In this document: one piece after another, positions 1,953 through 35,532 of the stretch
Layout: each line of letters begins with the position of its first letter
How positions within the stretch are numbered: position 1 is the stretch's first letter
IMG/VR virus record: IMGVR_UViG_3300020045_013551
Coordinates: 1 to 36,921 of that record
DNA: 36,921 nt
Source of the DNA: a virus
Lineage: Duplodnaviria > Caudoviricetes
Reading direction: 5' to 3' (one strand)
The notes under the pieces: model-generated
The model's database searches: none
What the model was told of the DNA's origin: nothing
Seen by the model: only the letters and a program-made list of their open reading frames with translations
Made by a program: the position numbers and the translations under genes

Positions 1953-4001
1953 ATGTACCAAACTCTCGACAATGCAGTTGCAATAACGGTCAACGACTGG
2001 CTTAGCCTTGGATTCACACACGATCAGCTTAAAAAGGACAGTTCACGAGGACACCTTAAGATCGTGAGCCGATCAATCAATGGTAATACCATGATTGATG
2101 TCAGGTCGATTAAGAGGCCCGACCGGATGCGCATCATTGAGGCCAAGTTTGGTAAGGTAGACGAACCGGTCAAGGTAATTCCAACTTATTCGGTGCAAAT
2201 TGATACAGTTGCCCGCGATTATTACCTGAGATTCCAGAAAAACGATGGTTCGCCGCTTGATTTTGACGACATCGAAGAGTACACCAACCGCGCCAGCATT
2301 CTTAACGGCTTACGCAACGGACTGGAAAAACAACGGATAGCCCGCGCGAAGGCCGGTAAAAAAATGAAGATGGGCGAATTTTGGGAGCAGGCGGTTGACT
2401 GGTACAATGCCCAACTCACCAAATACCCTTGTACAAAAATCTCGAATGCCCGCTCTCTTGAAAGGGTATTTAAAACTTATTTAAACGACGGTTACGACAG
2501 CCTAATACACGGTAACCAGGGCAACGACAACTCGCGCAAAGTTTCAACCTCAATCGAAAATTTATTCCTGGCACTATGGCGTACTTACGACAAACCATTT
2601 GTCACCACGGTTCATCAGCGTTACCTTGAGTTTGTCTCCGGAACAAAAGAACTGCACGACAAAAGCACCGGCGAAATTTTCAACCCCTCCGACTTCAGGC
2701 ACAAAGGCCGCGCGATGGAAGTAACCGAAGCAACTGTCTGGAATTACCTGAAAGACGAAATTAATAACACCTCTGTTTATACCGACCGTAACGGGAACTT
2801 CGATTACATGAACAAAAAACGGCCAAAGCATCAGCGCAAACTCGGCGCTTACTCGCTTAGTAAAATTTCGATGGATGACGTGGCTCTTAGCCGCCAGAGT
2901 GTTCGTGGATGGGTATATAAATACATTGCCGTTGACGTGTTAAGCGGTTACTGGTTCCGCCCGGCTTACGTGGTGGGTAAACCAACCGCCAACACGGTAC
3001 TCGAATCGTTCAGGAACATGTTTTGCGAACTGGCCGAATTAAATATGCCGATGCCTGGCGAACTGGAAGTCGAGTATCACTTGATGCAGGATATCAGTTG
3101 GCTAAATGAGATGTTCCCATTTGTTCGGTTCTGCGAAAGCTTCACTGAGAAACGCGCCGAACATGCCATCAAGGCTTTCAAATATGGAGTATCGAAAAAC
3201 GAGGGCCACACGCGCGGGCGCTGGTATGCCAACCACGAAGCTTACCGGAGCGTCAGAAATAAAGTGAATGGCGACTATGTGATTGAAGGTAAGGAATCTG
3301 ACAAGCTCTTGAACGGAACCATCAGGACAAACAATTTCAAAGCCGATAAATTACAGCCTCAGACCATTGTAGCCGACGATCTGGCCGATGTATTGAAGCA
3401 TAACAAAGAACTGCACCCACTGCAAAAAACTTATCCGGGCATGACCCGCCGCGATGTGCTGATGCAACGCATCAACCCAAACCTTAAAGCAGTTGAAAAC
3501 CGCTACCTGTATAAATTCATTGGCAACGTTACCGAAACGAGCCTTAACAATAATGACTGGTGCTGGATTAACGACGAACGTTTCGAGATTGCCGACTACA
3601 CAGCCATCAAACGCCTGAGGCCAAATAATAACACCATAACCGCTTACTGGATGCCCGAAGCCGATGGCACTTTGCTGAAGGCTTATTTATACCAGGGCGA
3701 TACTTACCTGAGCGAGGCTGTTAACAAGTCGCTAACGGCTTACAACGAGTTTGCCTTCGAGCGCACCGATGACGATAAGGCCGGAATGCTTCACCAGCAG
3801 AAACGCCTGGCAACATTCGACAAGATGATTCGAACCCGCCGTTCCGACATCCCGATTATTGGCAGTATGGACGCCGCTGAAGCCAAAGACCTGAATGAAA
3901 TTAAAACAACCATAGTGCCTGAAACCGTGCAGCCAGCCGGATACGAGTCCGACGAGTTTGATTACGACGATTGGGCAGCTAAAGCTTTAAACGCATTGTA
4001 A
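1953..4001 (+). CDS. MuA-like DDE transposase
   Basis: 682 aa; RNase H-like core segments ISMDDVAL, YIAVDVLSGYW, EKRAEH; immediately followed by an AAA ATPase. Confidence 0.88.
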   Translation: MYQTLDNAVAITVNDWLSLGFTHDQLKKDSSRGHLKIVSRSINGNTMIDVRSIKRPDRMRIIEAKFGKVDEPVKVIPTYSVQIDTVARDYYLRFQKNDGSPLDFDDIEEYTNRASILNGLRNGLEKQRIARAKAGKKMKMGEFWEQAVDWYNAQLTKYPCTKISNARSLERVFKTYLNDGYDSLIHGNQGNDNSRKVSTSIENLFLALWRTYDKPFVTTVHQRYLEFVSGTKELHDKSTGEIFNPSDFRHKGRAMEVTEATVWNYLKDEINNTSVYTDRNGNFDYMNKKRPKHQRKLGAYSLSKISMDDVALSRQSVRGWVYKYIAVDVLSGYWFRPAYVVGKPTANTVLESFRNMFCELAELNMPMPGELEVEYHLMQDISWLNEMFPFVRFCESFTEKRAEHAIKAFKYGVSKNEGHTRGRWYANHEAYRSVRNKVNGDYVIEGKESDKLLNGTIRTNNFKADKLQPQTIVADDLADVLKHNKELHPLQKTYPGMTRRDVLMQRINPNLKAVENRYLYKFIGNVTETSLNNNDWCWINDERFEIADYTAIKRLRPNNNTITAYWMPEADGTLLKAYLYQGDTYLSEAVNKSLTAYNEFAFERTDDDKAGMLHQQKRLATFDKMIRTRRSDIPIIGSMDAAEAKDLNEIKTTIVPETVQPAGYESDEFDYDDWAAKALNAL

Positions 4002-4019
4002 ACTATAAATACTAACCAC

Positions 4020-4946
4020 ATGATCACAACAGAATTCAAAACAAAGGTTATAGAAGAATTGGCCATCGCCCGTGAAAACTTCGATGGCTCAGCTACTCGC
4101 TTTGCCATTTCAATAGGCATAAACAAATCAATCTACAGCCGCATCAAAAAGGGCGAAACTGAACAGGTTCTTGCTGACGCAAAGTGGATAAGTCTAGGTC
4201 GCCGTTTCAATATCAGCTTAAACAACCGCGCTGCATGGCAAACGGCAGAAACACCAGTTTTTCAATTTATAACCACTCAGTTAGAGATTTGCCAGCGTCA
4301 GGGATTGAGTTCCATGCTGGTCGATTTAAGCGACATTGGCAAAACTTATACTGCCGAAATTTATTGCAATAAAAATAAGAATGCAGTTTTCATTGATTGC
4401 AGTAATGCAAAAAGTAAACAAAAGTTAATTCGTCAGATTGCAAAGGGCTTTGGAGTTGGAAGTACCGGAAGGTATGACGATGTGTATGATGATTTGGTTT
4501 TCTACCTGAAAACATTGAAAACGCCTTTAATTGTACTAGACGAAGCCGGGGACCTTGATTATAAGGCATTGCTCGAAGTGAAAGCGCTATGGAATGCGAC
4601 TAAATATTTTTGTGGATTTTACATGATGGGCGCCGATGGCCTTGAAGCAAGGATGCGCAATTCAATCAATTATCAGAAAAATGGTTTTGCTGAACTATTC
4701 AGTCGAGTTGGAAAACGTTACGGCAAAATTATGCCAATTACCATAAAGGTTGAAGAAAAAAAAGCAACCACACAAATGCTTGTTAATCCTGAAATGGCTA
4801 ATCTTCTCAAGGCTACAGCAATGATGATCATTAAGGCCAACGCTCCCGAAGGATCGAACCCCGGCACGATACTCCGCAACACAATGGGCGAAGATGGCCG
4901 CCCCAGCTTACGACGGATCTATAACGAATTGACCAAAGTTCAATGA
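4020..4946 (+). CDS. MuB-like transposition AAA+ ATPase
   Basis: N-terminal HTH, SDIGKT (Walker A variant), LIVLDEAG (Walker B). Confidence 0.88.
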   Translation: MITTEFKTKVIEELAIARENFDGSATRFAISIGINKSIYSRIKKGETEQVLADAKWISLGRRFNISLNNRAAWQTAETPVFQFITTQLEICQRQGLSSMLVDLSDIGKTYTAEIYCNKNKNAVFIDCSNAKSKQKLIRQIAKGFGVGSTGRYDDVYDDLVFYLKTLKTPLIVLDEAGDLDYKALLEVKALWNATKYFCGFYMMGADGLEARMRNSINYQKNGFAELFSRVGKRYGKIMPITIKVEEKKATTQMLVNPEMANLLKATAMMIIKANAPEGSNPGTILRNTMGEDGRPSLRRIYNELTKVQ

Positions 4947-5563
4947 GTCGAGCCTATTCGGTTAAGAATATCTACGATGCGAAATTTGACATTATGCCAT
5001 TTGAAAATGAGTGGCGCGATGCAATTGGCTGCCCTCAGTACTCCGGAACTACGATAATAATGGGACCGCCCAAAAACGGCAAAACTAGCTTTGCAATGAA
5101 ATGGTCGAAGCAATTAGCACGGTTTGGGCGGGTACTTTATCACCCGGTGGAAGAAAAGCTCTCACTATCGATAAAAGAACAATTAGAGAGGGTTGAAATG
5201 ATTGATGTTGGATCGAAATTCATAATGACTAACGGTGATGACAGTGTTGATGAGCTGATTACCCGACTCGACAAACACTGTAGCCCCAATTTTATAGTCA
5301 TTGACTCTATTCAGTTTTGGGATTTACGGTGGGCTGATTACAAACGCTTAAAACAGCGGTTTCCAAACAAGCGGTTCACCTATGTTTCTCACCTGAAAGG
5401 AAATCTGCCTGAAGGGATTACGGCGGAAAGGATTTGGAAAGATGCAGATTCAATTTTTCGGGTCGAAGGTTTTAAGGCTTTTCCGACTGGCCGCTACGGC
5501 GGAGGAGAGCCAATCACAATCAACGAACGATTAGCAAACGAATATTGGGGGTTATCAAAATAA
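4943..5563 (+). CDS. Second P-loop ATPase (RecA/RadA-like fold)
   Basis: GPPKNGKTS Walker A, FIVIDSIQ Walker B. Confidence 0.8.
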   Translation: MSRAYSVKNIYDAKFDIMPFENEWRDAIGCPQYSGTTIIMGPPKNGKTSFAMKWSKQLARFGRVLYHPVEEKLSLSIKEQLERVEMIDVGSKFIMTNGDDSVDELITRLDKHCSPNFIVIDSIQFWDLRWADYKRLKQRFPNKRFTYVSHLKGNLPEGITAERIWKDADSIFRVEGFKAFPTGRYGGGEPITINERLANEYWGLSK

Positions 5564-5566
5564 CAA

Positions 5567-6037
5567 ATGCAAAAAATGGAAAATTTAATTATCAAATCAA
5601 TCTATTCAGAATCAGTTCAGAAAATAGCTAAAAACTCACGACTGAAAGAGTTGGACGTATGGTCGTTGTTTTTCGACTCCGGATGCGATTACCTGGACCA
5701 ATTACGAAACCGAATTTATAACCATTCTGTTTTTCAGGCTCAGTTTGGCGAACTGCTAAGCGTGATAAAGCTAAAACAAACGCCAGCCGAGGCCTTCAGA
5801 GCCATATTAGCCTCACCTTATTTCTGGAACTGGTGGAGCTCGCAATTGTGGCGTGTGTGCTACAATTTCAGTAACGAACCGGAGACTGAAATTTATATCC
5901 GCTTAATGTTCAATACCAGTTTAATACCACAAAGCATCATTTTTAAAATTTTCACAAATGGCGAGCAACAAAAAAACAGTTCAGAGCAAGTTAGAATGCA
6001 AACAGTCGCTAAACACCGAACTAGACAAGTCTGCTGA
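5567..6037 (+). CDS. Hypothetical protein
   Basis: ORF in tightly packed early operon. Confidence 0.65.
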   Translation: MQKMENLIIKSIYSESVQKIAKNSRLKELDVWSLFFDSGCDYLDQLRNRIYNHSVFQAQFGELLSVIKLKQTPAEAFRAILASPYFWNWWSSQLWRVCYNFSNEPETEIYIRLMFNTSLIPQSIIFKIFTNGEQQKNSSEQVRMQTVAKHRTRQVC

Positions 6038-6209
6038 TCGATTGATAGACCTTGAAATACAGCAGCGAAATGGCGATTTTTCGATTGAGCTGGCACGAAA
6101 AATAAACGTTTTGCGCTACCATATTGAATTTTTAGAAAACCGTTTAAACGGATTTTTCGAGGCAAGTTACCGCAACGAATTAGAGGTTGAAGTACCAAAA
6201 AAACAGTAA
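5958..6209 (+). CDS. Hypothetical protein (coiled-coil-like)
   Basis: ORF in early operon, abuts next gene. Confidence 0.6.
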   Translation: MASNKKTVQSKLECKQSLNTELDKSADRLIDLEIQQRNGDFSIELARKINVLRYHIEFLENRLNGFFEASYRNELEVEVPKKQ

Positions 6210-8003: not shown

Positions 8004-8486
8004 ATGCAAAAATGGTTTAAATGTGTAGTCAATTACCTAAAAATTGACGATGACGGAAGGGAGCGAAAAGTAAGCGAACCGTATCTGATTGATGCGGTAA
8101 CGTATACCGATGCTGAAGCTCGCATTATTGCGCAGCTTGCTACAATGGTTCGCGGTGAATTTGTGGTCAAGCAAATTACTCAAACCAATATCGTTGAGAT
8201 TTTCCCTCACGAAGTTGGCGAATGGTGGTTTGTTGGTAAAATATCAATTGTTACCATCGACGAAAAAGCCGGAAAAGAAAAGAAAATCAGCAATCAGTTT
8301 TTAGTTGCAGCCGATGACATTAAACAGGCTTTAAAACGCCTTGAAGAGGGATTAAGTTATGTCATGGTACCGTACACAATTACTGCACTCTCAGTTAGCA
8401 ACATCGTTGACGTTTTCCCATACTTCGAAGATGCTGTAAACAAGCAAATTCCATCGAACCTGAAGCCAATCGAAAAAAGCGAATAA
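8004..8486 (+). CDS. DUF4494-like protein
   Basis: Start MQKWFKC at 8004; KVSEPYLIDAVTYTDAEARI and FLVAADDIKQA patterns typical of this Bacteroidota family. Confidence 0.8.
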   Translation: MQKWFKCVVNYLKIDDDGRERKVSEPYLIDAVTYTDAEARIIAQLATMVRGEFVVKQITQTNIVEIFPHEVGEWWFVGKISIVTIDEKAGKEKKISNQFLVAADDIKQALKRLEEGLSYVMVPYTITALSVSNIVDVFPYFEDAVNKQIPSNLKPIEKSE

Positions 8487-8487
8487 G

Positions 8488-8946
8488 ATGGAACTAACAC
8501 TTCAAAAATCAACAGCTAAACAGCTTTACCCTGTAGTACCCGATTGGTTTCAAAAGGTACTGTCAGATACATTTGGTACCGAGCTTTTTAAGAAAAAAAC
8601 TTTCGAAGATATCAAAACATTCGAAGACGCCTGTGAGGAATTGGGCATCGATCCTGAAACCGTGACTCATAAAAATGACACTCCGGACGAAGCTGCCTAC
8701 AAAAAACTGAAAATTGTGATAAAGGCAATTAACAAGGATTGGGTTCCCGACTGGAATGACAAAAGCCAGCGCAAATGGTGGCCTTATTTTAATTTGTCCT
8801 CGGGTTCCGGTTTTTCGGATTCGGCTTCGAGCTTCTACTACGGGCTTACGTATGTCGGTTCGCGCCTTTGCTTCGAGTCTGAGGCAAAGAGTAACTATGC
8901 TGCAACGCAATTCAATGAGTTATACAAACAATTTTTCACCATTTAA
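8488..8946 (+). CDS. DGR target protein 1
   Basis: Contains VR1; paralog of the next gene (IKTFEDAC, AAYK, KAIN..WVPDW, QRKW.P.F, VGSRLC). Confidence 0.92.
   Translation: MELTLQKSTAKQLYPVVPDWFQKVLSDTFGTELFKKKTFEDIKTFEDACEELGIDPETVTHKNDTPDEAAYKKLKIVIKAINKDWVPDWNDKSQRKWWPYFNLSSGSGFSDSASSFYYGLTYVGSRLCFESEAKSNYAATQFNELYKQFFTI
8793..8870 (+). repeat. DGR variable repeat VR1
   Basis: 78 nt aligned to TR 9409-9486; 13 mismatches, all at TR adenines. Confidence 0.96.
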
Positions 8947-8956
8947 GAGTAAAAAA

Positions 8957-9373
8957 ATGACAACAAAAAACGAGAATGAAAAGAATGAAGCCGTAAAGTT
9001 TGATTTCAGAACCATCAAAACTTTCGAAGATGCCTGCACACAGTTGAACATTGATCAGGCAGACATGCCCAACTTATCACTGATCCCGGAAGAGTTCCGA
9101 AAACCACTGTTAGCAGCCTATAAGCTTATGATTATCTTCAAAGCGATCAATAACGGCTGGGTACCTGATTGGAGCAACGACGAACAACGTAAGTGGTTCC
9201 CTTGGTTTGGGGTTTTGTCCTCGGGTTCCGGTTTTTCGGATTCGGATTCGGACTACTACTGCGGGGATGCGAGTGTCGGTTCGCGCCTTTGCACAGATTC
9301 GTCTGAAAAGGCTGAGTACATCGCCGAACAGTTTGAGGCTGAGTACGTCGATTACTTTTTGTATTCCGAATAA
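8957..9373 (+). CDS. DGR target protein 2
   Basis: Start MTTKNENEK at 8957 (138 aa); contains VR2. Confidence 0.92.
   Translation: MTTKNENEKNEAVKFDFRTIKTFEDACTQLNIDQADMPNLSLIPEEFRKPLLAAYKLMIIFKAINNGWVPDWSNDEQRKWFPWFGVLSSGSGFSDSDSDYYCGDASVGSRLCTDSSEKAEYIAEQFEAEYVDYFLYSE
9212..9291 (+). repeat. DGR variable repeat VR2
   Basis: 80 nt aligned to TR 9407-9486; 12 mismatches, all at TR adenines. Confidence 0.96.
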
Positions 9374-9406: not shown

Positions 9407-9486
9407 GTTTTGTCCTCGGGTTCCAGTTTTTCGGATTCGAATTCGAACTACAACTACGAGAATACGAATGTCAGTTCGCACCTATG
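9407..9486 (+). ncRNA. DGR template repeat (TR)
   Basis: Intergenic, AAY-rich copy of both VRs (19 adenines), directly upstream of the RT. Confidence 0.96.
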
Positions 9487-9590
9487 TTAGTTCCGCAGCA
9501 TAAACCCTGCCTACATGGCAAAAAATAAATTTTTTTAACGGGGCGTTAGTAACCTTTAAGGCAAAAACGACCTATTAATGCAAAGGCAAA

Positions 9591-10541
9591 ATGAAACGAA
9601 TCAACAACCTGTACGAACGCATCTGTAGCATTGAAAACCTTCAACTGGCAGACTCTATTGCCCGGAAAGGAAAGGCCAAACAACCAGGTGTAATTGCTCA
9701 CGACAAAAACCGTGAATCAAACATTCAACAGTTGCACGAAATGCTGATGAATAAGACTTACCGGACATCAGAATATACCACATTTGCCATTTTCGAACCA
9801 AAAGAGCGGATTATATTCCGGCTGCCTTATTTTCCTGACAGGATCACCCATCACGCTGTTATGAAAGTTTTAGAGCCGCTGTTCGTCTCCATTTTTACAA
9901 CTGATTCATATAGCTGCATCAAAGGTAAAGGCATTCATGCCGCTGCAAAGGCAGTTAAACGTTCTTTAAATGACGTTGAAAACACCCGGTATTGTTTGAA
10001 ATTGGATGTTAAGAAGTTTTACCCCTCGGTTGATCATGACATCTTAAAACAATTGCTTCGCCGGAAGATTAAAGACAATGACCTGTTATGGTTGCTTGAT
10101 GAAATCATTGACAGCACCGAAGGTCTTCCAATTGGCAATTACCTCAGCCAATATTTTGCCAACTTTTACCTTACCTATTTCGATCATTGGATGAAGGAAG
10201 AAAAGCGAGTTCGTTACTATTTTCGCTATGCTGATGATCTGGTGATACTCTCCAACTCAAAACCCTATTTACATCAATTACTTGCCGATATCTCGGAATA
10301 TCTTCATGACAATCTGAAACTAACCGTTAAAGGCAATTATCAGGTGTTTCCGGTTGATGCCAGGGGAATTGATTTTGTGGGTTATGTATTTCGGCACACG
10401 CATGTTTTACTCCGCAAAACCATTAAACAGAACTTTGCCCGAATGATCAAGAAAAATAGAAATGCTCAGTCAATAGCAAGCTACACCGGTTGGGCTAAAC
10501 ATTGTAACAGTAAAAACCTCTTAAAGAAATTGCTAGCATGA
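9591..10541 (+). CDS. DGR reverse transcriptase
   Basis: KERIIF, LKLDVKKFYPSVDH, GLPIGNYLSQYFANFYL (DGR-type SQ), RYADD, IDFVGY; 316 aa, no maturase or endonuclease extension. Confidence 0.96.
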   Translation: MKRINNLYERICSIENLQLADSIARKGKAKQPGVIAHDKNRESNIQQLHEMLMNKTYRTSEYTTFAIFEPKERIIFRLPYFPDRITHHAVMKVLEPLFVSIFTTDSYSCIKGKGIHAAAKAVKRSLNDVENTRYCLKLDVKKFYPSVDHDILKQLLRRKIKDNDLLWLLDEIIDSTEGLPIGNYLSQYFANFYLTYFDHWMKEEKRVRYYFRYADDLVILSNSKPYLHQLLADISEYLHDNLKLTVKGNYQVFPVDARGIDFVGYVFRHTHVLLRKTIKQNFARMIKKNRNAQSIASYTGWAKHCNSKNLLKKLLA

Positions 10542-10849
10542 ACAGTTTTAGTCAATTTAACATCAAAATCGAAAGCCAGTCTTTCGAGGGCGACAAAATA
10601 AAGATGTCTAAGATACTCAACCGCGAGATCGTGGTTCATCACTTCAAGCTCGAAGACTCAAAAGTAAAATCATTCCAGGAGAAAGGCACAGGTAAATGTC
10701 TGCACCTTCAAATATCGTTCGATAACCGCAAACATGTTGTTTTTACTTCGTCAACCGGCCTGATCGAAGTGATAAAAAAGATACCCGACGACGGGTTCCC
10801 ATTTTCAACTACCATAGTCGAAGAAAACGAACGGTTTAAATTCACTTAA
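10538..10849 (+). CDS. Hypothetical beta-rich protein coupled to the RT (candidate DGR accessory)
   Basis: ATGA overlap with the RT stop; 103 aa. Confidence 0.8.
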   Translation: MNSFSQFNIKIESQSFEGDKIKMSKILNREIVVHHFKLEDSKVKSFQEKGTGKCLHLQISFDNRKHVVFTSSTGLIEVIKKIPDDGFPFSTTIVEENERFKFT

Positions 10850-14404: not shown

Positions 14405-14830
14405 CTACAATGTTTTTTTTGCTTCAAACTCCACAAACGTAACCATCCAGCCTTTGTATTTGTGCCAGTGTTGCCAGCCGGTGAAGTTCATTTGCCTCGT
14501 GTATCCATCTGGCGGGGTGAAATGGTCGATGGTATCCTTTGCCCAGGTTGCAATTTCTTCGTGCGTATCAACCACGCTGTCGGGTATAGTTCCATCGGTG
14601 CCAGTTAATGCCTGGGTAACCACGTGCAGCCGTATTTTAACAGGAGTGCGCCGGGCATCTTTGCTTATTTGGTCAATAACCAAGGGTTCCGGAAACTCTA
14701 CAAAAATACGCGGGGTACTGGCAATGGTGCTTTCGTACTGCACATTGTACCATTCAATTCCCTTCAGGGTCAAATCTTCGTCAGCAGTAATTAATTGCTG
14801 TTTAATTGCTTTGTAAATGTCGTTTAACAT
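14405..14830 (-). CDS. Putative tail terminator/neck protein (Mu gp37-like)
   Basis: 141 aa, PRIFVEF motif; synteny after gpG-like gene. Confidence 0.55.
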   Translation of the reverse strand: MLNDIYKAIKQQLITADEDLTLKGIEWYNVQYESTIASTPRIFVEFPEPLVIDQISKDARRTPVKIRLHVVTQALTGTDGTIPDSVVDTHEEIATWAKDTIDHFTPPDGYTRQMNFTGWQHWHKYKGWMVTFVEFEAKKTL

Positions 14831-14863
14831 GTCAATTTAGTTACGAGTTATAAATTATGAGCG

Positions 14864-15316
14864 TCATTTAAAAATCTCATCCACCATTCGTTCAAATTTG
14901 TTTTCAATTCGTTTGTTCAAGGCTTCAGAGTCGCCAATCATTTTACGTTCTGGCATGGTAAAGCCCGGCGGCCTTCCGGCCTGCAAGCCGTCATTGTGCG
15001 CTTCAGTATATGGCATGGAGCTTATAAACTCAACGCTTCCGGACTTGGCCTGTGTTTCGGTATCAAACGAGCGCCGCATCTTACCGCCATCAATCAATAA
15101 CTGTCTGCCTGATCGTTTTTTTTTCCCCTTTCCAGTCTCCTTTTTCCGTTTTACCCACTTCTTAGCGCTTCCAGGTTTGTCTTCAAAACCTTCCTTATCA
15201 AAATTGTCATGAATAAAATTTAAGCCCTCCACTTTGGCAATGCCAGGCAGTCGTTTTATCATATCTGGAATGCGCTGTCTGATCTTGTTCAGCTTATTGA
15301 TAAAATCGTTATTCAT
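14864..15316 (-). CDS. Virion morphogenesis protein (Mu gpG-like)
   Basis: NFDKEGF, LLIDGGKMRRS, PYTEAHNDG, MPERKMIGDS motifs. Confidence 0.85.
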   Translation of the reverse strand: MNNDFINKLNKIRQRIPDMIKRLPGIAKVEGLNFIHDNFDKEGFEDKPGSAKKWVKRKKETGKGKKKRSGRQLLIDGGKMRRSFDTETQAKSGSVEFISSMPYTEAHNDGLQAGRPPGFTMPERKMIGDSEALNKRIENKFERMVDEIFK

Positions 15317-16079
15317 CTTTCAGGTAGTTTTTCAGCAGTGCGTCCGATTGGCTATTCATGTCCTTTATCACCGAATCAGCTAAATCTGCGCGGTATCCGT
15401 TCGAGTCAGAGAAAAGCTTCTTATCCTTACCCGGATTAAAATCGAAACCTTTTCCAGGCGTGTAGTCAATGCTTTTTGTGAGGGCTTTGTCCGTTTGTGT
15501 AACAGAGCAGCGGCAGCCCCAGCCGTTTGGCGGATAGTTCGAGTTCCAAAAATCATCGTTGATTGGCCGGATAATTCCGTTTAGTCGGGCATGTTCAATT
15601 CGGGTTTGGTCATCGGTTACTGATCTGTATTCGAGGTTAGGGTAGATATCGGCGTTTTCTTCGAACCCTGCCCATTTTTCGGCCATCTGAGCGCTTGCAA
15701 TAGATTGGTTGTATTCAGTCTTCAGCCAATCAATATTATATTGCTGTGTAACCGGTAGCGCCTCTTTTTTAAAGCTGGCCCAACTTCGGGGCTTTCCTTC
15801 ATCATCAACTAATAGGTCGCGAAGCGTGTTTTGTTCAGCGTGATTTTTGAAGGCTGCGAACGAAGCGGCATTAACCCGAAGCTGTTCGGCTAAAGCACTG
15901 TATTGGTACGATGTTTCGAAACTTAACCCGGCATCTTCAATACCAGCCAGCAAGCCCTCAAAATTATGCTTCCATATTTCGGGGTCGACTCCCTTCTGTC
16001 CATCAAAAAAACGTTTTAACCAGGCTTCAAGTCGCTTGTCAACCGCGTTAACAATTACCAGGGATTGGTACTTTTTTTT
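15309..16079 (-). CDS. MuF (SPP1 gp7-like) minor head protein; no ATG start, frame open back to the A10 run in the portal gene
   Basis: WLKTEYN, LEYRSVTDDQTR.EH, PPNGWGCRC, FDFNPG; frame open 16079-15309. Confidence 0.88.
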   Translation of the reverse strand, partial: KKKYQSLVIVNAVDKRLEAWLKRFFDGQKGVDPEIWKHNFEGLLAGIEDAGLSFETSYQYSALAEQLRVNAASFAAFKNHAEQNTLRDLLVDDEGKPRSWASFKKEALPVTQQYNIDWLKTEYNQSIASAQMAEKWAGFEENADIYPNLEYRSVTDDQTRIEHARLNGIIRPINDDFWNSNYPPNGWGCRCSVTQTDKALTKSIDYTPGKGFDFNPGKDKKLFSDSNGYRADLADSVIKDMNSQSDALLKNYLKDE

Positions 16080-17263
16080 TTAATGGCGGCGCGTGCATTC
16101 GGCTTTTTACCGTTTTTAGGCTCCTGACTGTTTTCGTCAATCTCGGTTTCTTCAGCTGGATCTTGCTGCGCTTTTTCATCCAATACAGGAAACCTTCCGG
16201 TACAACCATCTAGCGGGTAACCCCAGTAGATCAGGAAGGGGATGAGCTCGTAATTGATGATGTTTTGCGTTTCACGCAGGCGCGAGTGATGAAAATCGTT
16301 CAGGATGTTTTCAGCCACTTCAGCAGTGCCTACAAACGCTTTTTCGGCACCTGTGCCGTACTGGCCGTTGATGATCTTGGCAATGTACTGGTCGCACTTG
16401 TCAATGTTTTTGTCGTAAATCAGGTAACCGCTACCGTTGTTCGAGGCTTCAAATTTCTCCACTTCATCCTCGGTACCAACAATGGCATAGCCGTTTCGGC
16501 TGAAATTTTTAGCGCCTTTTTCAACCTGATCAAGCTCTTTGCCTTCCGCATCGGTTTTGATCACAATACGCGGCTGTCCCCACTTTTCGCTGTGCTCGTT
16601 CCAGTCGCGACGTGCAAAACTTTTGATGATTACTTCCCTGGTTAATTTCTCCAATTTACCCAACGATTTCTTTTCACCCAGTTCGATCAAAAACAGTTCG
16701 TAGGGATTAATAATTTGTCCTTTCTCCGGATCGTCATTGGCATAAGCAATACCCTGCCTGTCGGTAGCATTCAGGATGATGTTTTTATTGTGCGGGTAAA
16801 CATTGTAGATTGGGAATAGCTCACAATCGATGAATTGTCCGTCAGCATCGAACTGACCAAATTCAGCAAGGCGATATCCCCATAACTCTTTTTCAACAAT
16901 GAATTCGCGAAACTTATCGAACCACGGACGCATAAATAATGCGCTTAGCTCTTCGTTATCCGTACCGTCTTTCGATATGATGAATTTTTCGGCCTTGATT
17001 TTATTCACGGCAATATCGCGCTGTGTTGACACTTCCGGATCGGTCAGCGTATTTTCATACATCCGGTATAGTTCAGTCCACGATGGGTTTTGCGTGTCCT
17101 TTGCATCGGTAACATACTGGCGCAGCGATCCTAATTCCATTTGAACGCGGTCGGGTTGTGGCAGGTTTACATTGTCGCTCTGCCTGCTGCCCTTTTTGCC
17201 GTTTGTTTTGGTTTCCGTGTTGGTGGCCGGTATCTCTTTTTTGTTCCAGAAACGTAAATCCAT
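16055..17263 (-). CDS. Portal protein (DUF935/Mu gp29-like)
   Basis: 402 aa, WNEHSEKWGQP, IAKIINGQ, AEVAENI; between terminase and MuF. Confidence 0.85.
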   Translation of the reverse strand: MDLRFWNKKEIPATNTETKTNGKKGSRQSDNVNLPQPDRVQMELGSLRQYVTDAKDTQNPSWTELYRMYENTLTDPEVSTQRDIAVNKIKAEKFIISKDGTDNEELSALFMRPWFDKFREFIVEKELWGYRLAEFGQFDADGQFIDCELFPIYNVYPHNKNIILNATDRQGIAYANDDPEKGQIINPYELFLIELGEKKSLGKLEKLTREVIIKSFARRDWNEHSEKWGQPRIVIKTDAEGKELDQVEKGAKNFSRNGYAIVGTEDEVEKFEASNNGSGYLIYDKNIDKCDQYIAKIINGQYGTGAEKAFVGTAEVAENILNDFHHSRLRETQNIINYELIPFLIYWGYPLDGCTGRFPVLDEKAQQDPAEETEIDENSQEPKNGKKPNARAAIKKKSTNPW

Positions 17264-17301
17264 GATTTGAAAATTTGAAAATTTAAAAATTCGGATATGA
17301 C

Positions 17302-17721
17302 CTAATAAATGTCATTATCCCTCGCTGCATCGCCGCCAAATCGGTAGCTTGTTTTTGGTGAAGCATCCTCGTTTAATATCGGTGTCAGGGTGCATTCCAT
17401 CTGTCCGGCTGCTATTTTTGCAATGTTTTTAATTTGCGTGTTGTAATTCTCGGTGATTCGCTCCGGAATGTCATTGTCATCAACCGTATTGAAAAGGTAA
17501 TAGGCGGTGATGTGGATCATGAGCCGGATCATCAGCCCATTGCGGTTACTACCCTTTTTAGCAAGCTCAACCGGAATATTGTATTTGGCCTGTAACGGAT
17601 CAAGCTCGGTTATGGCCAGCTCCTCGGAAGTTGCAAGATTAACATCATCGACGCCACGCAGCGAGTTGAGCGTATTGGCGCCGATGATGCCGTTAAAATC
17701 GGTTTCGGTAAGGAATTGCAT
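17302..17721 (-). CDS. Head-tail adaptor (DUF1320/Mu gp36-like)
   Basis: FLTETDF, ITAYYLF, ITENY...KIAAG pattern; synteny. Confidence 0.75.
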   Translation of the reverse strand: MQFLTETDFNGIIGANTLNSLRGVDDVNLATSEELAITELDPLQAKYNIPVELAKKGSNRNGLMIRLMIHITAYYLFNTVDDNDIPERITENYNTQIKNIAKIAAGQMECTLTPILNEDASPKTSYRFGGDAARDNDIY

Positions 17722-17724
17722 GTC

Positions 17725-18021
17725 CTACTTATTTTCGTAGTAATACAGTGCCTGAAAGCGGTCGAAAGCTACAATGGCCAGAACCGTAACGTCGTTTGAA
17801 TTCACAAATTCGCAAAGGTCGTCGGGATGCTGATAGTGCTTTGTTTTTAACTCTTTTTTTATTTTCACCAATTTTTTAACCTTTTCTTCGGTTTTCACTT
17901 CAGCAGTTTCTTCCACCTTTTCTTCAGTATTCACTTCGGTAGTTTCTACAACCTTTGCCTGTGTAGCTTCTCCGGCTTTCACTTCGACAGTTTCTTCAGC
18001 ATTCTTTTTTGATTTTCCCAT
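17725..18021 (-). CDS. Hypothetical protein with acidic low-complexity N-terminus
   Basis: ORF packed in operon; E/K/V/T-rich repeats. Confidence 0.7.
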   Translation of the reverse strand: MGKSKKNAEETVEVKAGEATQAKVVETTEVNTEEKVEETAEVKTEEKVKKLVKIKKELKTKHYQHPDDLCEFVNSNDVTVLAIVAFDRFQALYYYENK

Positions 18022-18039
18022 AACTTTTTTTGTTAATTA

Positions 18040-19623
18040 TTAATAAATTGATCTATCATCGTTTCGGGCATATTGCCCTGTCCTTGTCTCTCTCTCTCGC
18101 CCTGACTTGCCTTTTTTTGTGTCGAGTTTGTGAATAGCGCCTTCAACCATATCAGGTCCATCGTCTTTAATACGCTTATCCGGAAACCCTAAAAATTGAT
18201 CGCGCAGGGTAATCATGTCGGGCTTTTGCTTTAATGCCCGATTGAAGCGAACAAACCCGGCTTCAGTGAGCGGCGTCAGATTTTCTATTCTCACCTCTTT
18301 ATCCGGCTTTTTGCGCTTGTCGCCACGAATGCGCAGCATGGGCGGGTTTTCATCTCCATATCGGTAATATTCCTCCAGCATGAGATCCTGAATAAAGTTG
18401 GCTTCCATCCAGTGCTTTATTTTCAGGTGATCGGGTACTTGTTTTGAGATGGTATAATGACCGCGCACCATTTCGGCGGTACTGCACTGGCGGTCGAATA
18501 TGTCGATAATGTCGTAATAGCGTCCTATTTTACCAATCAATCCAATGGCTTTGCAATCGCTTGTCATCGAATTTTTGTAAGACGGATCGTTATATGTGAT
18601 CAGCTCGTCGTAGCTGGTGAGCGGCAAAACGTCAGTCCAGGGCAAATGCTCTTCTTTGAACATTTTGCCAAAAATTATGTGCTGATGGAAGTACTCTTTC
18701 AAGCCGCTACGGCGACCCATACGATTGATCTTATTCCACAGCATTTGGTAAGTGTACCTTTCTTTCCACGCCGGAACTCCTTTTTCGGTTAAGTCCATTT
18801 TGCGCGTTCGAGGGTTCTCAATCGCATAAACTTTGGAGTGATATAAACCTTCACGGATCGGATCGCCTTCTTCGATATCGCCCGCAAATTTGGCTAATAC
18901 CGATTTACGGTGAATGCGGTTACCAATCATGATCAACCGGCTACCAGTGATAGGCAAACATCCATAAAAGTCTTCAAAAATCCATTCCAGGCATTCGTCA
19001 ACCAAATCTTCATTCTTGACAAACTTCTTGTCGTCAATATCATCAATCAGCCCGTATTTTGGTCTGAAGCTTGACTCCTTAATACCACGCGGAGATTGAC
19101 CGCGACCGAACGCCCAAAAGCCATAGCCCTGGGCTGAAACAAAATAACCGTCCGTCCATTTACCGGAGCCGTATTGCTCACCAAAATCGCTGATGAAACG
19201 TTTGTTAAACATCAGCTCACTTTGTAAGTCGGCTAATAATTTATTGGCTTTTGCTTCGGTTGCTGAACCAACAACCATCCCGGAAAAGTCTTTCCGGGCG
19301 ATTAGTACCATTGGCTCAATGACTCCAAAAATAGTAGACTTCGCATGCTCGCGGGGGTATTCCATTAAAGCCATCAAATCGGATTCCTCCGAAACCTTTT
19401 TCATGTCGCGTTTCTGGAAATAGGCAAAATCGGACAATGCCAGGTGACTGCAATAATATTTGGCAAACTTGTGCTCGTTGCCAACTTTCAACAGTTCGGC
19501 AATGCGTTTTTTGCGCGCCTCTTCACCTTCGCGGCTCTCAGGGCTCAGACGTTTAATAGCCGCCTTTTCCTGAATCCAGGCTTCGTACTCCTGCTTTTCT
19601 TTTAGGCGCATGATCCCGGTCAT
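18040..19623 (-). CDS. Terminase large subunit
   Basis: PREHAKST Walker A, LIDDIDD Walker B, MIGN coupling motif, YNDPS and DDGPD nuclease motifs. Confidence 0.93.
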   Translation of the reverse strand: MTGIMRLKEKQEYEAWIQEKAAIKRLSPESREGEEARKKRIAELLKVGNEHKFAKYYCSHLALSDFAYFQKRDMKKVSEESDLMALMEYPREHAKSTIFGVIEPMVLIARKDFSGMVVGSATEAKANKLLADLQSELMFNKRFISDFGEQYGSGKWTDGYFVSAQGYGFWAFGRGQSPRGIKESSFRPKYGLIDDIDDKKFVKNEDLVDECLEWIFEDFYGCLPITGSRLIMIGNRIHRKSVLAKFAGDIEEGDPIREGLYHSKVYAIENPRTRKMDLTEKGVPAWKERYTYQMLWNKINRMGRRSGLKEYFHQHIIFGKMFKEEHLPWTDVLPLTSYDELITYNDPSYKNSMTSDCKAIGLIGKIGRYYDIIDIFDRQCSTAEMVRGHYTISKQVPDHLKIKHWMEANFIQDLMLEEYYRYGDENPPMLRIRGDKRKKPDKEVRIENLTPLTEAGFVRFNRALKQKPDMITLRDQFLGFPDKRIKDDGPDMVEGAIHKLDTKKGKSGRERETRTGQYARNDDRSIY

Positions 19624-20099
19624 GACATTACCCTCCGCTTTTCGTTGATGTAGTCATCTGCATGATCAACCACGTCTTGGGCAACCTCCATGTCAACCTC
19701 TTTTAACCAGGCAGTGAATTCACGGATGATCTTCACCACGCTCGACCACTCCTGTTCTTTGCCTTTAATGGTTGTAAATAGTTTCTGAAGCGCATCGATT
19801 TCTCCTTTTGGGATCAAAGCGGCCTTTAGGTCTTCCATCGTTGGGTTTTCGGATAGTTCGGCTCGTAGCTTTTCACCAATCATGCGGATAATGGTCGACT
19901 GGTGTTCAAGGGCGATCAGTGCATTTTCTTCCGATGTTTTTCGGGCAAGCGACTGCATGACGCGGTTTTTACGCATCCCGTTTTTCGTGACGTAACGCGA
20001 AACGGTTACTTCCGAGAGCTTCAACACGCGGGCAATATCTTTTTGTTCCCACCCTGCTGTGAATAATTCGTCGATTGCTGAATGCGTAGTTAATGCCAT
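19620..20099 (-). CDS. Terminase small subunit (HTH)
   Basis: QKDIARVLKLSEVTVSRY HTH; coupled to TerL; likely start MALTTH at 20099. Confidence 0.8.
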   Translation of the reverse strand: MALTTHSAIDELFTAGWEQKDIARVLKLSEVTVSRYVTKNGMRKNRVMQSLARKTSEENALIALEHQSTIIRMIGEKLRAELSENPTMEDLKAALIPKGEIDALQKLFTTIKGKEQEWSSVVKIIREFTAWLKEVDMEVAQDVVDHADDYINEKRRVMS

Positions 20100-20271
20100 T
20101 TTTTTTGATCGTTTACCGGTCAAAAATGGACATTAATAATAGACTTCAATTGATTTAATAAAACGGTTGGACAGTAGTGTTTTACGCTTGGACACTTTCC
20201 GTTTTTATACCAAAAAATGCTTGACTTTTGGAATGTCGAACGGCACAAAGGTAAAGCAAAAAAAACCAAAC
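20100..20271. promoter_or_regulatory. Divergent late control region
   Basis: TTGGACA at 20167-20173 and 20188-20194, TGGACA at 20127; degenerate -7 box GACTTTTG at 20223-20230. Confidence 0.5.
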
Positions 20272-23033: not shown

Positions 23034-23060
23034 GTACAGACGCGATGCATCGCGTCTCTA
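23034..23060. repeat. REP-like palindrome copy 1
   Basis: GTACAGACGCGATGCATCGCGTCTCTA; near-identical to 25044-25070. Confidence 0.8.
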
Positions 23061-25042: not shown

Positions 25043-25072
25043 GGTAGAGACGTGATGCATCGCGTCTCTACC
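25043..25072. repeat. REP-like palindrome copy 2
   Basis: GGTAGAGACGTGATGCATCGCGTCTCTACC, 30-bp palindrome with one mismatch. Confidence 0.8.
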
Positions 25073-29088: not shown

Positions 29089-31083
29089 ATGAAGACAACA
29101 TTATTAATACTGTTGATGTTGATTGGATTAATGTCACAGGCTACTACTTATCAGATAGCTAATGAAGCTGCATTAGCTGCCTTTAATCAAAGCTCATTAG
29201 TGGCTGGAGATAATCTGCAATTACAGAAAGGACAAGTATTTACAACTCCTATCGTAATAAGTAATTCAGGAACTTCAGATAATCCAATTACTATCACTTC
29301 ATATGGCACAGGCGCAAATCCAATAGTAACAGGATTTGCTACCGTTAGCTCTTGGACTAATCTAGGTTCAAATATTTGGGAAAGCACCAATTCAGTCTCA
29401 ACCCTTTCAACCTGCAATATAGTTACTGTAAATGGTATCAATACAACAATGGGGCGATTCCCGAATGCCGATGCTGCAAATGGTGGATATTTAACTTTTC
29501 AATCTCATGTAGGACATACTTCTATTACTACAAGCGGATTAACTGGAACTCCGAATTGGACAGGTGCTGATGTTGTTGTCAGAACTTCACATTGGACTAT
29601 TAACAGAACGATCATAGCATCTCAATCGTCTGGAACATTAAATTATACAGCATTGGATGGATATGAACCAGCCAATGGTTTTGGTTTATTTATTCAAAAT
29701 GATATCAGAACGCTTGATCAGCAAAATGAATGGTATTACAACCCATCGACAAAGAAAATTAGTATTTACAGTACTTCTCAGCCTACAAATGTTAGGGTAT
29801 CATCTGTTGAAAATTTGATTACAGTAAACGGTAATTATGTTACTATTGATGGAATTGATCTTTTAGGTGCAAATTCAAATGCTATTTACAGTTTAACTGG
29901 TGGTAGAAGTAATTGTGCTATTCAAAATTGCAATATTTCATTAGTTGGAATAAGTGCAATAAAATTCAGGTGTAACTATTTAAACATTGAAAACAATACT
30001 ATTTCAAATTCAAATGATACTGGAATAACTACGCCAAATTCTACTTATGTAACTATCAGAAATAATGTAGTTCAAAACATTGGGTTGCTTATAGGTATGG
30101 GTGGCGATGGAAATGGAACAAGACATGGTATATCCTGTGTTTCATCGGACAATAGCACCATTGAATACAACAGGATCATTAATATAGGATATATCGGTAT
30201 TGAATTTTATGGAAATTCAATTTTAGTTAAGAATAATTTTATTGATTCTTATTGTAGCGTTCTTGATGATGGCAGTGGTATTTACACATATACAGGAACT
30301 CAAACACCTGCAAAAACTAATCAAATTATTATAGGAAATATTGTAATTAATGGAATTGGTGTAGCTTATGGTACAAGCACGACTGCACCCTCAGTCACAG
30401 GCATATATTTAGATGAAAATACGAATGATGTTGAAGTAACAGGGAATACTATTGCAAATAGTAATGAACTTGGAATATTTTTACATAACACACATTCATG
30501 TAGTATTACTGGAAACACGGTATATAATAGCAAGGTCGATCAGCTATTTTTCAAGGATAATGATAATACTGCAACGGGCAATACTATAACTGGAAATATG
30601 TTTGTTGCTGGGCTTTCTACTAACACTCGAAATTCATGGTATCGTGCATCTCAGGGAACTGTAATTAATTCAGGAGGCACAATAAATAATAACTACTACA
30701 TTAATCTATCAACAGTTACAAATCAGATTGCTATTTACACCCAAAATATCAGTTATGCTGATTATACTTTAGCATATTGGCAAGCTGATACAGGTTTTGA
30801 TCTTACTTCAAGCCTATCTCCTTTTTCAATTACTTCTGAATCTGATTTATATCTTGCTTATAACGAAACGAGTACGGCAAAAACAGTACCACTGCCTTGG
30901 AATGGGAAAGACATGACAGGAGCAGTAAAAGGAACGTCTGTTTACCTACAACCATACTCTAGTATGTTATTGTTTTATTCTGCTCCAACTAATCCAAATA
31001 ATTATAATAAAGCAAGAGTACTTCCAAATGGTAAGGTGATGATTAATTCCAGAAGTGGATATTTACCAATGGTAAAGGAATAG
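29089..31083 (+). CDS. Signal-peptide right-handed parallel beta-helix protein (pectin-lyase-like, possible depolymerase)
   Basis: MKTTLLILLMLIGLMSQA; SGTSDNPITITSYGTGANP; repeated I.NN.I/GN.I; DDGSGIYT, GIYLDE. Confidence 0.8.
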   Translation: MKTTLLILLMLIGLMSQATTYQIANEAALAAFNQSSLVAGDNLQLQKGQVFTTPIVISNSGTSDNPITITSYGTGANPIVTGFATVSSWTNLGSNIWESTNSVSTLSTCNIVTVNGINTTMGRFPNADAANGGYLTFQSHVGHTSITTSGLTGTPNWTGADVVVRTSHWTINRTIIASQSSGTLNYTALDGYEPANGFGLFIQNDIRTLDQQNEWYYNPSTKKISIYSTSQPTNVRVSSVENLITVNGNYVTIDGIDLLGANSNAIYSLTGGRSNCAIQNCNISLVGISAIKFRCNYLNIENNTISNSNDTGITTPNSTYVTIRNNVVQNIGLLIGMGGDGNGTRHGISCVSSDNSTIEYNRIINIGYIGIEFYGNSILVKNNFIDSYCSVLDDGSGIYTYTGTQTPAKTNQIIIGNIVINGIGVAYGTSTTAPSVTGIYLDENTNDVEVTGNTIANSNELGIFLHNTHSCSITGNTVYNSKVDQLFFKDNDNTATGNTITGNMFVAGLSTNTRNSWYRASQGTVINSGGTINNNYYINLSTVTNQIAIYTQNISYADYTLAYWQADTGFDLTSSLSPFSITSESDLYLAYNETSTAKTVPLPWNGKDMTGAVKGTSVYLQPYSSMLLFYSAPTNPNNYNKARVLPNGKVMINSRSGYLPMVKE

Positions 31084-33546: not shown

Positions 33547-35532
33547 ATGAAAAAACTATTAGTGATATTGATGCTCGTTTTGGCTGTTATAGCCGTTAAG
33601 GCTCAGACAGGCTGGTTGAATTATGGCGGTGCAAAAAACTACGCCATCTGGACGACCAAGTGGCTTCAGGCCGACAATATATTTTATTGGCAGGGAGATA
33701 CTATTAAAAAGGGTAAGCTTGCTTATACCGAATTGGTTGGAGATTCGGTCAGGTTTAAGTTTATAGGCAGTTCAGGGTTAATTTCAAAATGGTTCTACCC
33801 TGGAAAGGCGGGAGCCGCTGGCTATATATTACCTACTGCATCAGCTACCACACTCGGGGGTATTAAAATCGGTTCAGGTATTTCAATGGCTTCAGGGGTT
33901 GCAAGCGTAAGTACCAATTATCAGGCACCTATTGCAGCCGGAACAACCTCACAATATTGGCGAGGCGACAAAACATGGCAGGCATTCCCGACTATTCCAA
34001 CAACAACCAGCCAGCTAACCAATAATTCGGGATTTATTACAGGATATACTGAGACTGATCCAATTTTTGCGGCCTGGAATAAATCGACAGGAATTTCAAT
34101 TACCAAAAGTCAGGTCAGTGATTTTGGAAGCTATGAAGTACCATTGACGTTTTCAACGGGACTGACCAGAACTGGTAATACAATCACCAATAATATAACC
34201 CAGTACACCGACGCAATGGCTGATGCCAGGGTTGTTGCAGGCATTACCGGAAAGCAAAACACTTTGGTATCATCCACGAACATTAAGACTATTAATGGGT
34301 CATCTATTTTGGGATCGGGTGATATTACCATAGCAGGAAGCGGCGATCACATGGTTGCATTTTATGGTAATACAAGTTTAGTCGGATATTTAGATGATAA
34401 TTATTACGACATCATTGGAGGTAAGATAACACCCAAAACGTTGAATTTGCCAACATCAGGGTCTATAGTACCATTCACGGCAGGTGGAGCATATACACAG
34501 CTTGCACTGAAGCAAAACACAATAACTACCGGAACTACCTCGCAGTATTTTAGGGGTGATTTGAGTTTGGCTACTTTCCCAACAATTCCGACGACTACGA
34601 GCCAGCTAACCAATAATTCGGGATTCATTACAGGATACTCTGAAACCGACCCAAATATTTATGCATGGGCAAAGGCATCTTCGAAACCTAGCTATGCTTA
34701 TTCTGAGATTACGGGTAAACCAACCATTCCAACATACACCAGTCAACTTACCAATAACTCGGGTTTTATTACAGGTTTTACCGAGACTGATCCCAATATT
34801 TATGCCTGGGCAAAATCAAGTTCAAAACCGTCATATTCGTATTCTGAAATAACAGGAACAGCACCAGGTGCTGATGGAAATTACTACCCTACATCATTAA
34901 GCTATTCTAGCGGGACATTAACGCTGGGCAGAAGTGGATTGTCAAGCCTGACGGCATCGTTACCTACCTCATTACCGGCTTCAGATGTTTATAGTTGGGC
35001 GAAATCTTCTGTAAAGCCAACATATACAGCATCAGAAGTTGGAGCTGCGTCTTCTGCTAATGAAGGTAAGGTGGCTTTTAATGGAAACCACTCACTTCTT
35101 GGCTATTTAGATGACGCGAAATTTGACATTGTAGGTGCTGTTATTTCACCAAAAACAACATCAACTGCGACATCAGGATCAACGCTTCCGATTACTTCAG
35201 GCGGGGTTTATTCAGCATTAGCGGGTGTGCAAAATATCACTATGTCACAAGCAACAAATGGTTGGGTTAAAATTGGTGCGTTAATCATCCAGTGGGGGAA
35301 GTACTACGTAGGCGACCCTGGAACTAATACATTATATACAATTACTTATCCTATAAGTTTTCCAACATTTGCCGCAAACATACAACATACATTAGAGGAC
35401 TCGGGCACTGGAGCTGGTGCTATGCTGCACGAAACATATTCCTACAATAGTAGTTCATGCTCAATAAGAGTGCATGAGGCTAGCGGTGGAACGCAAAATG
35501 TTACAATCAACTGGGTAGCGTTTGGGTGGTAA
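33547..35532 (+). CDS. Tail-fibre-like protein with N-terminal signal peptide
   Basis: LPTASATTLGGIKIG, three SQLTNNSGFITG repeats, NIKTING.SILGSGDI, C-terminal NGWVKIGALIIQWG...WVAFGW. Confidence 0.8.
   Translation: MKKLLVILMLVLAVIAVKAQTGWLNYGGAKNYAIWTTKWLQADNIFYWQGDTIKKGKLAYTELVGDSVRFKFIGSSGLISKWFYPGKAGAAGYILPTASATTLGGIKIGSGISMASGVASVSTNYQAPIAAGTTSQYWRGDKTWQAFPTIPTTTSQLTNNSGFITGYTETDPIFAAWNKSTGISITKSQVSDFGSYEVPLTFSTGLTRTGNTITNNITQYTDAMADARVVAGITGKQNTLVSSTNIKTINGSSILGSGDITIAGSGDHMVAFYGNTSLVGYLDDNYYDIIGGKITPKTLNLPTSGSIVPFTAGGAYTQLALKQNTITTGTTSQYFRGDLSLATFPTIPTTTSQLTNNSGFITGYSETDPNIYAWAKASSKPSYAYSEITGKPTIPTYTSQLTNNSGFITGFTETDPNIYAWAKSSSKPSYSYSEITGTAPGADGNYYPTSLSYSSGTLTLGRSGLSSLTASLPTSLPASDVYSWAKSSVKPTYTASEVGAASSANEGKVAFNGNHSLLGYLDDAKFDIVGAVISPKTTSTATSGSTLPITSGGVYSALAGVQNITMSQATNGWVKIGALIIQWGKYYVGDPGTNTLYTITYPISFPTFAANIQHTLEDSGTGAGAMLHETYSYNSSSCSIRVHEASGGTQNVTINWVAFGW

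Follow-up and report, generated by a model that had tools for sequence, protein, structure and literature searches.

To our knowledge, the only phage diversity-generating retroelement (DGR) that has been studied experimentally acts on adsorption. The DGR of Bordetella phage BPP-1 comprises mtd, avd, the template repeat (TR) plus brt, and that of ANMV-1 (KP703175) has the tail-linked AdtA as its target. In the catalogue of Wu et al. (2018; PMC5758913), the elements t120 (Galbibacter, with the order TG-TG-TR-RT) and t121 (Pedobacter) were assigned to Lineage 3, architecture A1, CLec3 and category f4; the part of the paper that treats them reports that these targets align poorly to other CLec3 targets and that t120 is without an accessory gene, and it states as a gap how Avd-less Lineage 3 DGRs work. 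Cluster PC_00007 of Roux et al. (2021; PMC8144416) was placed under 'Phage_other' and read as non-structural or unknown, with 1.6% of the cluster predicted to be structural, and the sections of that paper concerned with it allow for a structural role of unknown kind. Benler et al. (2021; PMC8008677), in the portion dealing with Quimbyvirus, described a distal DGR target (ORF 80/84) as non-structural and proposed a role for it in phage-host conflict; it adjoins methyltransferases, a MutY-like nuclease and a tRNA ligase, and lies on the strand opposite to the structural genes. A distal variable repeat close to methyltransferases is reported for four gut prophages in the available part of PMC12629997.

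The window analyzed here is a whole virus record of 36,921 bases, in which two small paralogous genes, A and B, are the targets of an Avd-less DGR. In common with BPP-1, this element has the logic of TR, variable repeat (VR) and reverse transcriptase (RT), adenine-specific change, and a VR ending in a G-x-R strand motif, whereas it differs from BPP-1 in having two targets, no tail-fibre target, an internal VR, no Avd, and no GC-rich hairpin after either VR1 or VR2. The AdtA target of ANMV-1 is unrelated to A and B. Compared by eye, t120 and t121 have full-length targets homologous to A/B, of the same size (156 and 123 aa) and with the same motifs, in the same layout and likewise without Avd, and the relevant part of Wu et al. 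gives no phage context, function or accessory gene for them (PMC5758913). PC_00007 holds an A/B-family pair as secondary and primary targets; the pair of Roux et al. (sample 3300009082) corresponds to A and B of one of our loci (L061), with homology over the full length of the targets, and the sections of that paper on the cluster contain no analysis of mechanism, pairing or fold (PMC8144416). Among gut phages, gp84 of BI-TP1 is an A/B homolog with a Quimbyvirus-like neighbourhood and a three-piece RT, and we infer from this context, and not from the sequence of the ORF itself, that it corresponds to the distal Quimbyvirus ORF of Benler et al. Quimbyvirus carries one copy, shares its TR with a tail protein and has a full-length CLec3-type VR, in contrast to the present phage, whose DGR is dedicated to an adjacent tandem pair, the VR being shorter and a tail target lacking. 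We conclude that t120/t121, PC_00007 and the distal target of gut phages and Quimbyvirus are one family, the identity for Quimbyvirus being by context.

The original prediction had named the pair as the best candidate for an undescribed system, on the premise that described phage DGRs diversify only tail adhesins. That premise was outdated, an exception being named in the abstract of Benler et al. (2021; PMC8008677), and the passages of four sources that bear on the family already put the family, the two-target layout and a counter-defence guess in print (PMC5758913, PMC8144416, PMC8008677, PMC12629997). No function for the family was found in the literature searched, which lay mostly outside subscription papers, and the available parts of 10.1101/2024.11.15.621889, PMC8143477 and PMC8525569 held nothing further on it. 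What is new here is the unification of three catalogue entries, a possibly non-CLec scaffold and a candidate accessory protein; because the three entries form a single family, to which GenBank Bacteroides phages and named isolates of Flavobacterium and Maribellus contribute members, the question of function becomes testable.

The cassette and its adenine pattern

The record was rated 61% complete, and transposase, portal, terminase, capsid, tail and terminal methylase genes were all found in it; the phage is transposable and Mu-like, and its host is probably one of the Bacteroidota. Genes A and B sit in a rightward gene run behind a Mu-like module of transposase (1953-4001) and transposition ATPase (4020-4946); the portal, terminase and neck genes occupy 14405-20123 on the minus strand, head and tail genes extend over 20.2-35.5 kb, and the record ends with an adenine methyltransferase. 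All named-genome relatives of A and B were Bacteroidota, with Prolixibacteraceae closest.

Gene A (8488-8946, plus strand) encodes 152 aa of the phrog_11581 family, including a family-specific N-terminal extension of about 35 residues, and gene B (8957-9373, plus strand) encodes a 138-aa paralog with 47% identity to A; an in-frame ATG upstream of B, at 8756, would open a 205-aa frame, and the start at 8957 is backed by the family alignment. The TR (9407-9486, plus strand) matches VR1 in gene A (8793-8870, plus strand, about codons 103-128) and VR2 in gene B (9212-9291, plus strand), with mismatches at adenines only: 13 of 19 adenines were changed in VR1 and 12 of 19 in VR2, vs. 0/59 and 0/61 other bases. 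Four changes per VR lie at boundary codons and are fixed family-wide, leaving 9/15 (VR1) and 8/15 (VR2) core adenines changed. Five AAY codons and five codons with one adenine each make up the TR core and allow 7.8e8 possible peptides per target, and the TR adenines code no stops. Across 178 VRs of related loci, 2615 of 3840 adenines were changed, compared with 57 of 10401 other bases. Adenines at both ends of the TR (9425, 9474, 9481 and 9485) were almost always G or T in the VRs, including those of related loci (e.g., 114/119 and 158/158); at the 3′ end these differences are IMH/IMH*-like, and the 5′ end shows an equivalent.

When both strands of the record were scanned with the TR, non-A positions matched at 0.92 for both VRs and at 0.52 for the next-best site, from which we concluded that the TR/VR match is not due to chance and that the record is without a tail target. 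The targets lie 18.7 kb from the first gene after the tape-measure region (start 28104), and both VRs terminate in VGSRLC, followed by 24 residues in A and 26 in B. On all points checked, the original prediction had described the targets correctly (two paralogs, an internal VR, about 25 constant residues, VGSRLC, and a distance of about 19 kb from the tail), and the scan confirmed, for this 61%-complete record, its statement that the TR has no match in the tail genes. It had also noted the lack of a signal peptide, which agreed with inspection of the sequence, and of a transmembrane segment: the best 19-residue Kyte-Doolittle mean had a median of 0.45 among 90 A proteins and 0.92 among 92 B proteins, with maxima of 1.25 and 1.86, and thus neither family contained a strongly hydrophobic stretch.

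The reverse transcriptase and the gene behind it

The RT (9591-10541, plus strand) is an intact, DGR-type protein of 316 aa with a YADD motif (Pfam RVT_1, E 1.6e-18; phrog_1423, E 6.8e-131) and adjoins the TR. Together with the adenine-only TR-VR pairs, this adjoining intact RT makes the cassette a genuine DGR of the catalogued kind. The spacer between TR and RT (9503-9593, plus strand) gave a weak match to the Rfam RT-17 RNA, below the gathering score (28.3 bits against 40.4; E 0.016), and is likely part of the DGR RNA. No avd gene was found in the cassette, and no gene lies between B and the RT.

Overlapping the RT stop is a gene for a 103-aa protein (10538-10849, plus strand) with a predicted, SSB-like OB fold, which we considered a candidate accessory. 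When the profile of this gene was searched and the best 80 of 303 matches were taken, the gene lay directly behind the RT in 72 of 74 new loci, the other two showing a deleted RT or a contig end, and it was lost together with the RT in 8 loci that retain only the A/B pair. Homologs hold the corresponding position in the tail-targeting DGRs of the archaeal viruses ANMV-1 and vir525, the former being a clear homolog directly after the RT (hhalign probability 99). The AF2 model was a beta-barrel (pLDDT 88), and the top matches of a VIA fold search were nearly all OB folds, many of them SSBs, at middling Z scores of 5.0-6.3 (rmsd 2.3-3.2, 63-80 aligned residues). An atlas match assigned 44% of family members to PF17427 (phi29-type SSB) at 0.95; a Pfam HMM search gave no hit in 64 members of the family, and Pfam returned no Avd match for the protein of this phage. 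The mean pI of the family, 8.5, is only suggestive of single-stranded nucleic acid binding.

We propose this SSB-like protein as a candidate substitute for Avd. Of the accessory classes named in the pertinent part of Wu et al. (PMC5758913), the comparison covered avd, HRDC, MSL and CH1, and the protein falls outside these four. No SSB-like DGR accessory gene was named in the literature that we searched, most subscription papers being outside that search, and the gene may explain how Lineage 3 DGRs function without Avd.

Fold, diversification and possible pairing of the targets

Proteins A and B matched phrog_11581 (unknown function) only, and neither had a Pfam match. The AF2 model of A, built from 62 sequences, was mainly helical with a mean pLDDT of 79, and the VR was its low-confidence part (pLDDT <50 at residues 105-124). 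Foldseek against the PDB gave 0 hits at E<=0.001 with this model, PDB sequence searches with A returned nothing significant, the best VIA match had a Z of 3.9 with no CLec among the matches listed, and all BFVD matches were uncharacterised phage proteins, several of them crAss-like. These blank searches do not demonstrate a new fold. The VRs contain the CLec3-class motif ending in GSRLC and represent the last two thirds of a CLec3 VR, and the profile likeness of the A/B family to a tail target was limited to 37 VR columns; a VR-only match to Mtd-U1 was weak (E 1.2). Since the likeness to a tail lectin is confined to the VR, the simplest reading of the model is a lectin-type VR on another, helical scaffold, although a CLec sheet would be completed by precisely those VR strands that were modelled with low confidence. 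Profile comparisons with three tail targets gave no support beyond the VR for reading A and B as circularly permuted CLec proteins.

Recent diversification was observed between relatives that are near-identical to each other. All 9 differences between L022 and L023 fell in the last 360 nt, and the differences between L044 and L051 lay in the VR in 13/13 and 10/12 cases; in more distant Flavobacterium pairs, 9-11 of 24-27 differences were in the VR. These differences show ongoing mutagenic retrohoming in relatives, and the DGR of the present phage is probably active. Among 169 VRs, fixed and variable residues alternated along the repeat, position -10 was Tyr, Cys or Phe in 142, Tyr was retained more often than adenines at AAY codons, and A-to-C changes, which would yield Pro at two ACG codons, occurred there in 1/135 and 1/131 cases, compared with 10-20% at AAY codons. 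The alternation, the avoidance of Pro and the retention of Tyr are as expected if the VR formed a beta-hairpin, one face of which varies, and were subject to purifying selection. Selection on the VR fold we take as established, and the hairpin itself, given the pLDDT below 50 in this region, is suggested by the sequence pattern.

Three scans, one of them covering the best 80 of 288 matches, yielded 127 loci; 101 remained after removal of near-copies, and 95 of these had at least 1.6 kb of downstream sequence. The pair, RT and small gene occurred together in 78 of the 95 non-redundant loci, the rest being 8 with the pair only (without RT or accessory gene), 4 with one gene only and 5 with other combinations. 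No remote RT for the RT-less pairs was found in 5/5 records, all incomplete. Only 25 of 62 loci with long upstream flanks were Mu-like, indicating that the cassette moves between phage types, and the five-part cassette was established across unrelated Bacteroidota phages, spanning Prolixibacteraceae, Flavobacterium and Chitinophagaceae-type hosts. A full-library profile search put the size of the target family at 4571 clusters at 50% identity. Extra family copies were seen in L041, L045, L054, L044, L103 and L124, either as third tandem targets or 3-5 kb away, and those of L044, L045, L054, L103 and L124 still match the local TR.

The gap between A and B had a median of 5 nt (89 pairs). On a tree of 182 rows, made by a quick method and with several long branches, the first and second genes separated (5 label changes vs. 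61 when shuffled), which points to old, distinct roles. The 8 pair-only and 4 single-gene loci indicate that some lineages can do without ongoing diversification and without pairing. Among 36 relatives of at least 230 aa, drawn from the best 7991 candidates, 29 had two domains by best profile score: 12 A-then-B, 12 A-then-A, 5 B-then-B and 0 B-then-A; none of the 36 was fused to a tail fibre or an enzyme, and no Pfam domain was found in 20 longer relatives scanned. One locus (L230) combined an A-A fusion with a separate B gene, RT and small gene. With A-A fusions as frequent as A-B fusions, and given L230, avidity or tandem duplication fits as well as an obligate heterodimer, so that the fusions would support joint action of several copies and not a heterodimer specifically. 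The separate, long-lived clades and the 12 A-to-B against 0 B-to-A fusions make an A-B heterodimer plausible, and single-copy relatives exist; that the heterodimer is obligate is a tentative proposition, which we lean against. One long relative (P0192) has a C-terminal extension that looks helix-turn-helix-like by eye and gave no Pfam hit.

Single-copy relatives occur in the replication or early region of the GenBank phages BI-TP1/LoVEphage, PV4-TP1, Versailles and BT-TP2, whose DGRs lie elsewhere and adjoin a tail-module gene; one TR matches both the tail gene and the A/B homolog. Adenine-only change relative to the TR was seen in BI-TP1 gp84 (14/25 adenines, 0 other bases, 56 kb from the TR), in the Versailles homolog (14/22, 0 other) and in that of BT-TP2 (13/32, 0 other), and all of the 12, 17, 14 and 16 VR differences between BI-TP1 and four copies of the LoVEphage group fell on TR adenines. 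As the TR is common to the tail gene and the homolog, tail DGRs also have members of the family as a second, remote target, and we rejected the notion that the gut homologs are non-DGR relatives. We likewise rejected a binding specificity shared by both targets and a tail adhesin, because VRs supplied by one TR are unlike one another. In the lineage of the present phage, by comparison, the family forms a pair that is the only target of its dedicated DGR, whose TR is shortened. The Versailles homolog (WAK79127; L204, 7875-8456) carries the label 'tail protein' and is flanked by recombination and replication genes; its likeness to tail proteins is limited to the VR, from which the label likely stems. 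In BI-TP1 (W02, 5079-6133) the DGR RT is split into three reading-frame pieces, which matches the description of Quimbyvirus.

Possible roles of A and B, and other features of the record

We collected 262 nearest-neighbour ORFs from 46 mostly non-Mu loci and scanned 252 of them, 8 opposite-strand ORFs and 2 family members having been omitted. None of the 252 matched a PHROG tail family. Most had no match, and the named ones were mainly helicases, primases, recombinases, HNH nucleases and DNA methyltransferases, the last amounting to 13 genes in 11 of the 46 loci, a raw count that lacks a control set of early genes. Nine head or packaging genes were among the three nearest neighbours in 7/46 loci, and the cassette lies at terS/terL in L050, L058 and L111, so the 'early' location is not universal. 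The original prediction had held that the targets are not receptor-binding proteins and are probably intracellular. Gene context speaks for both parts, as does the figure of 1.6% predicted structural proteins in the cluster given in the pertinent sections of Roux et al. (PMC8144416), and it is from context that the claim still draws its support; we regard a non-virion, intracellular role as quite probable.

Our preferred reading, to which we would give a probability of roughly 0.45, is that A and B are cytoplasmic variable binders, likely serving counter-defence. We counted in its favour that the family was read as non-structural in PMC8144416 and the Quimbyvirus target as a conflict protein in PMC8008677, as far as the relevant parts of these sources go. 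In such a scheme, an Avd-less DGR would use a single template to rewrite roughly ten codons per target in the two small paralogs. By analogy with BPP-1 retrohoming, the TR RNA would be reverse transcribed with errors at adenines, possibly with the OB-fold protein binding RNA or cDNA in place of Avd, and the cDNA would replace either VR independently, to give up to that same 7.8e8 peptides per target. A and B, likely made among the early genes and likely cytoplasmic, would act together, as a dimer or as two independent binders, and would use the predicted beta-hairpin face to bind a host protein that varies among strains, most probably part of a defence. Were A and B to act together in this way, one phage population would hold a library of intracellular binders, from which variants silencing a host defence protein would be selected. 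A more specific version, in which a lectin-type VR is grafted onto an unrelated helical scaffold of a non-CLec class, A and B form an antibody-like binder whose two diversified faces offer up to 6e17 combinations for neutralising variable host immune proteins, and an SSB-like helper replaces Avd, seems to us doubtful as a whole. If the preferred reading is true, a family of 4571 clusters is diversified away from the tail module, and phages would hypermutate a step inside the cell too.

The binders could instead be expressed from prophages and recognise proteins of superinfecting phages, serving exclusion or competition; the DGR would then keep pace with rival phages and not with the defences of the host. 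All contexts observed were temperate, with transposase or integrase neighbours, many cassette loci are located in host genomes, and bacterial DGRs diversify putative intracellular sensors according to the available part of PMC10907252; set against this, the genes lie within same-strand lytic early or replication operons and an effector domain was present in 0/20 longer relatives scanned, and we consider this account rather unlikely. Host takeover, in which A and B bind a housekeeping machine that varies among host species (RNA polymerase, ribosome or replisome) and the DGR widens the intracellular host range, would suit the neighbouring replication, recombination and transcription genes and the spread of the cassette over Prolixibacteraceae, Flavobacterium and Chitinophagaceae-type hosts. 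Slow-varying housekeeping targets would fit a 1e8-fold diversification poorly, however, and many related phages lack the pair or can do without it, which leaves this explanation a slim chance.

That A and B are virion-associated, either as a minor capsid or tail component or by being packaged with the DNA and injected together with it, and that they bind a surface receptor or act immediately on entry, is suggested by the gut phages in which one TR feeds a tail protein and an A/B-family member, by the cassettes at terS/terL, and by the structural role that the consulted sections of Roux et al. leave open (PMC8144416). The absence of tail genes among the 252 neighbours, the predicted structural share of 1.6% in the same source and, in the relevant part of PMC8008677, the orientation of the Quimbyvirus copy against the structural genes make such a role improbable. 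Least probable, to the point of being very hard to sustain, is hitch-hiking, in which a VR copy was acquired by a small gene and its variation brings no benefit but is tolerated: cDNA insertion could create remote copies, the RT is lost in some loci, and one relative (L106) has a broken VR, but 78 loci in different genera retain a DGR dedicated to the pair alone, the TR adenines avoid stops, the VR fold is under purifying selection, and the family counts its clusters in thousands (4571 at 50% identity).

Several other features of the record may be mentioned. The DUF4494 gene immediately upstream of A (8004-8486) adjoins the family also in other Mu-like loci and in L015 and L016, and is missing from most cassette loci; it was considered as a possible CH1 accessory gene. 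Neither the tail-fibre gene (33547-35532), with its internal repeats of about 141 nt and its gp53-like C-terminus, nor the gene for a low-GC beta-helix protein (29089-31083) has a VR. The minus-strand portal, terminase and neck block is divergent from the protease-capsid-tail block, whereas Mu has a single late operon. At the record start, 1-111 and 1066-1176 form a 111-nt inverted copy (99%) of a stretch within the likely repressor gene, probably an assembly artefact. A 27-nt palindrome occurs twice, at 23034-23060 and 25045-25071, both times in late intergenic sequence, and from its appearance we take it to be REP-like.
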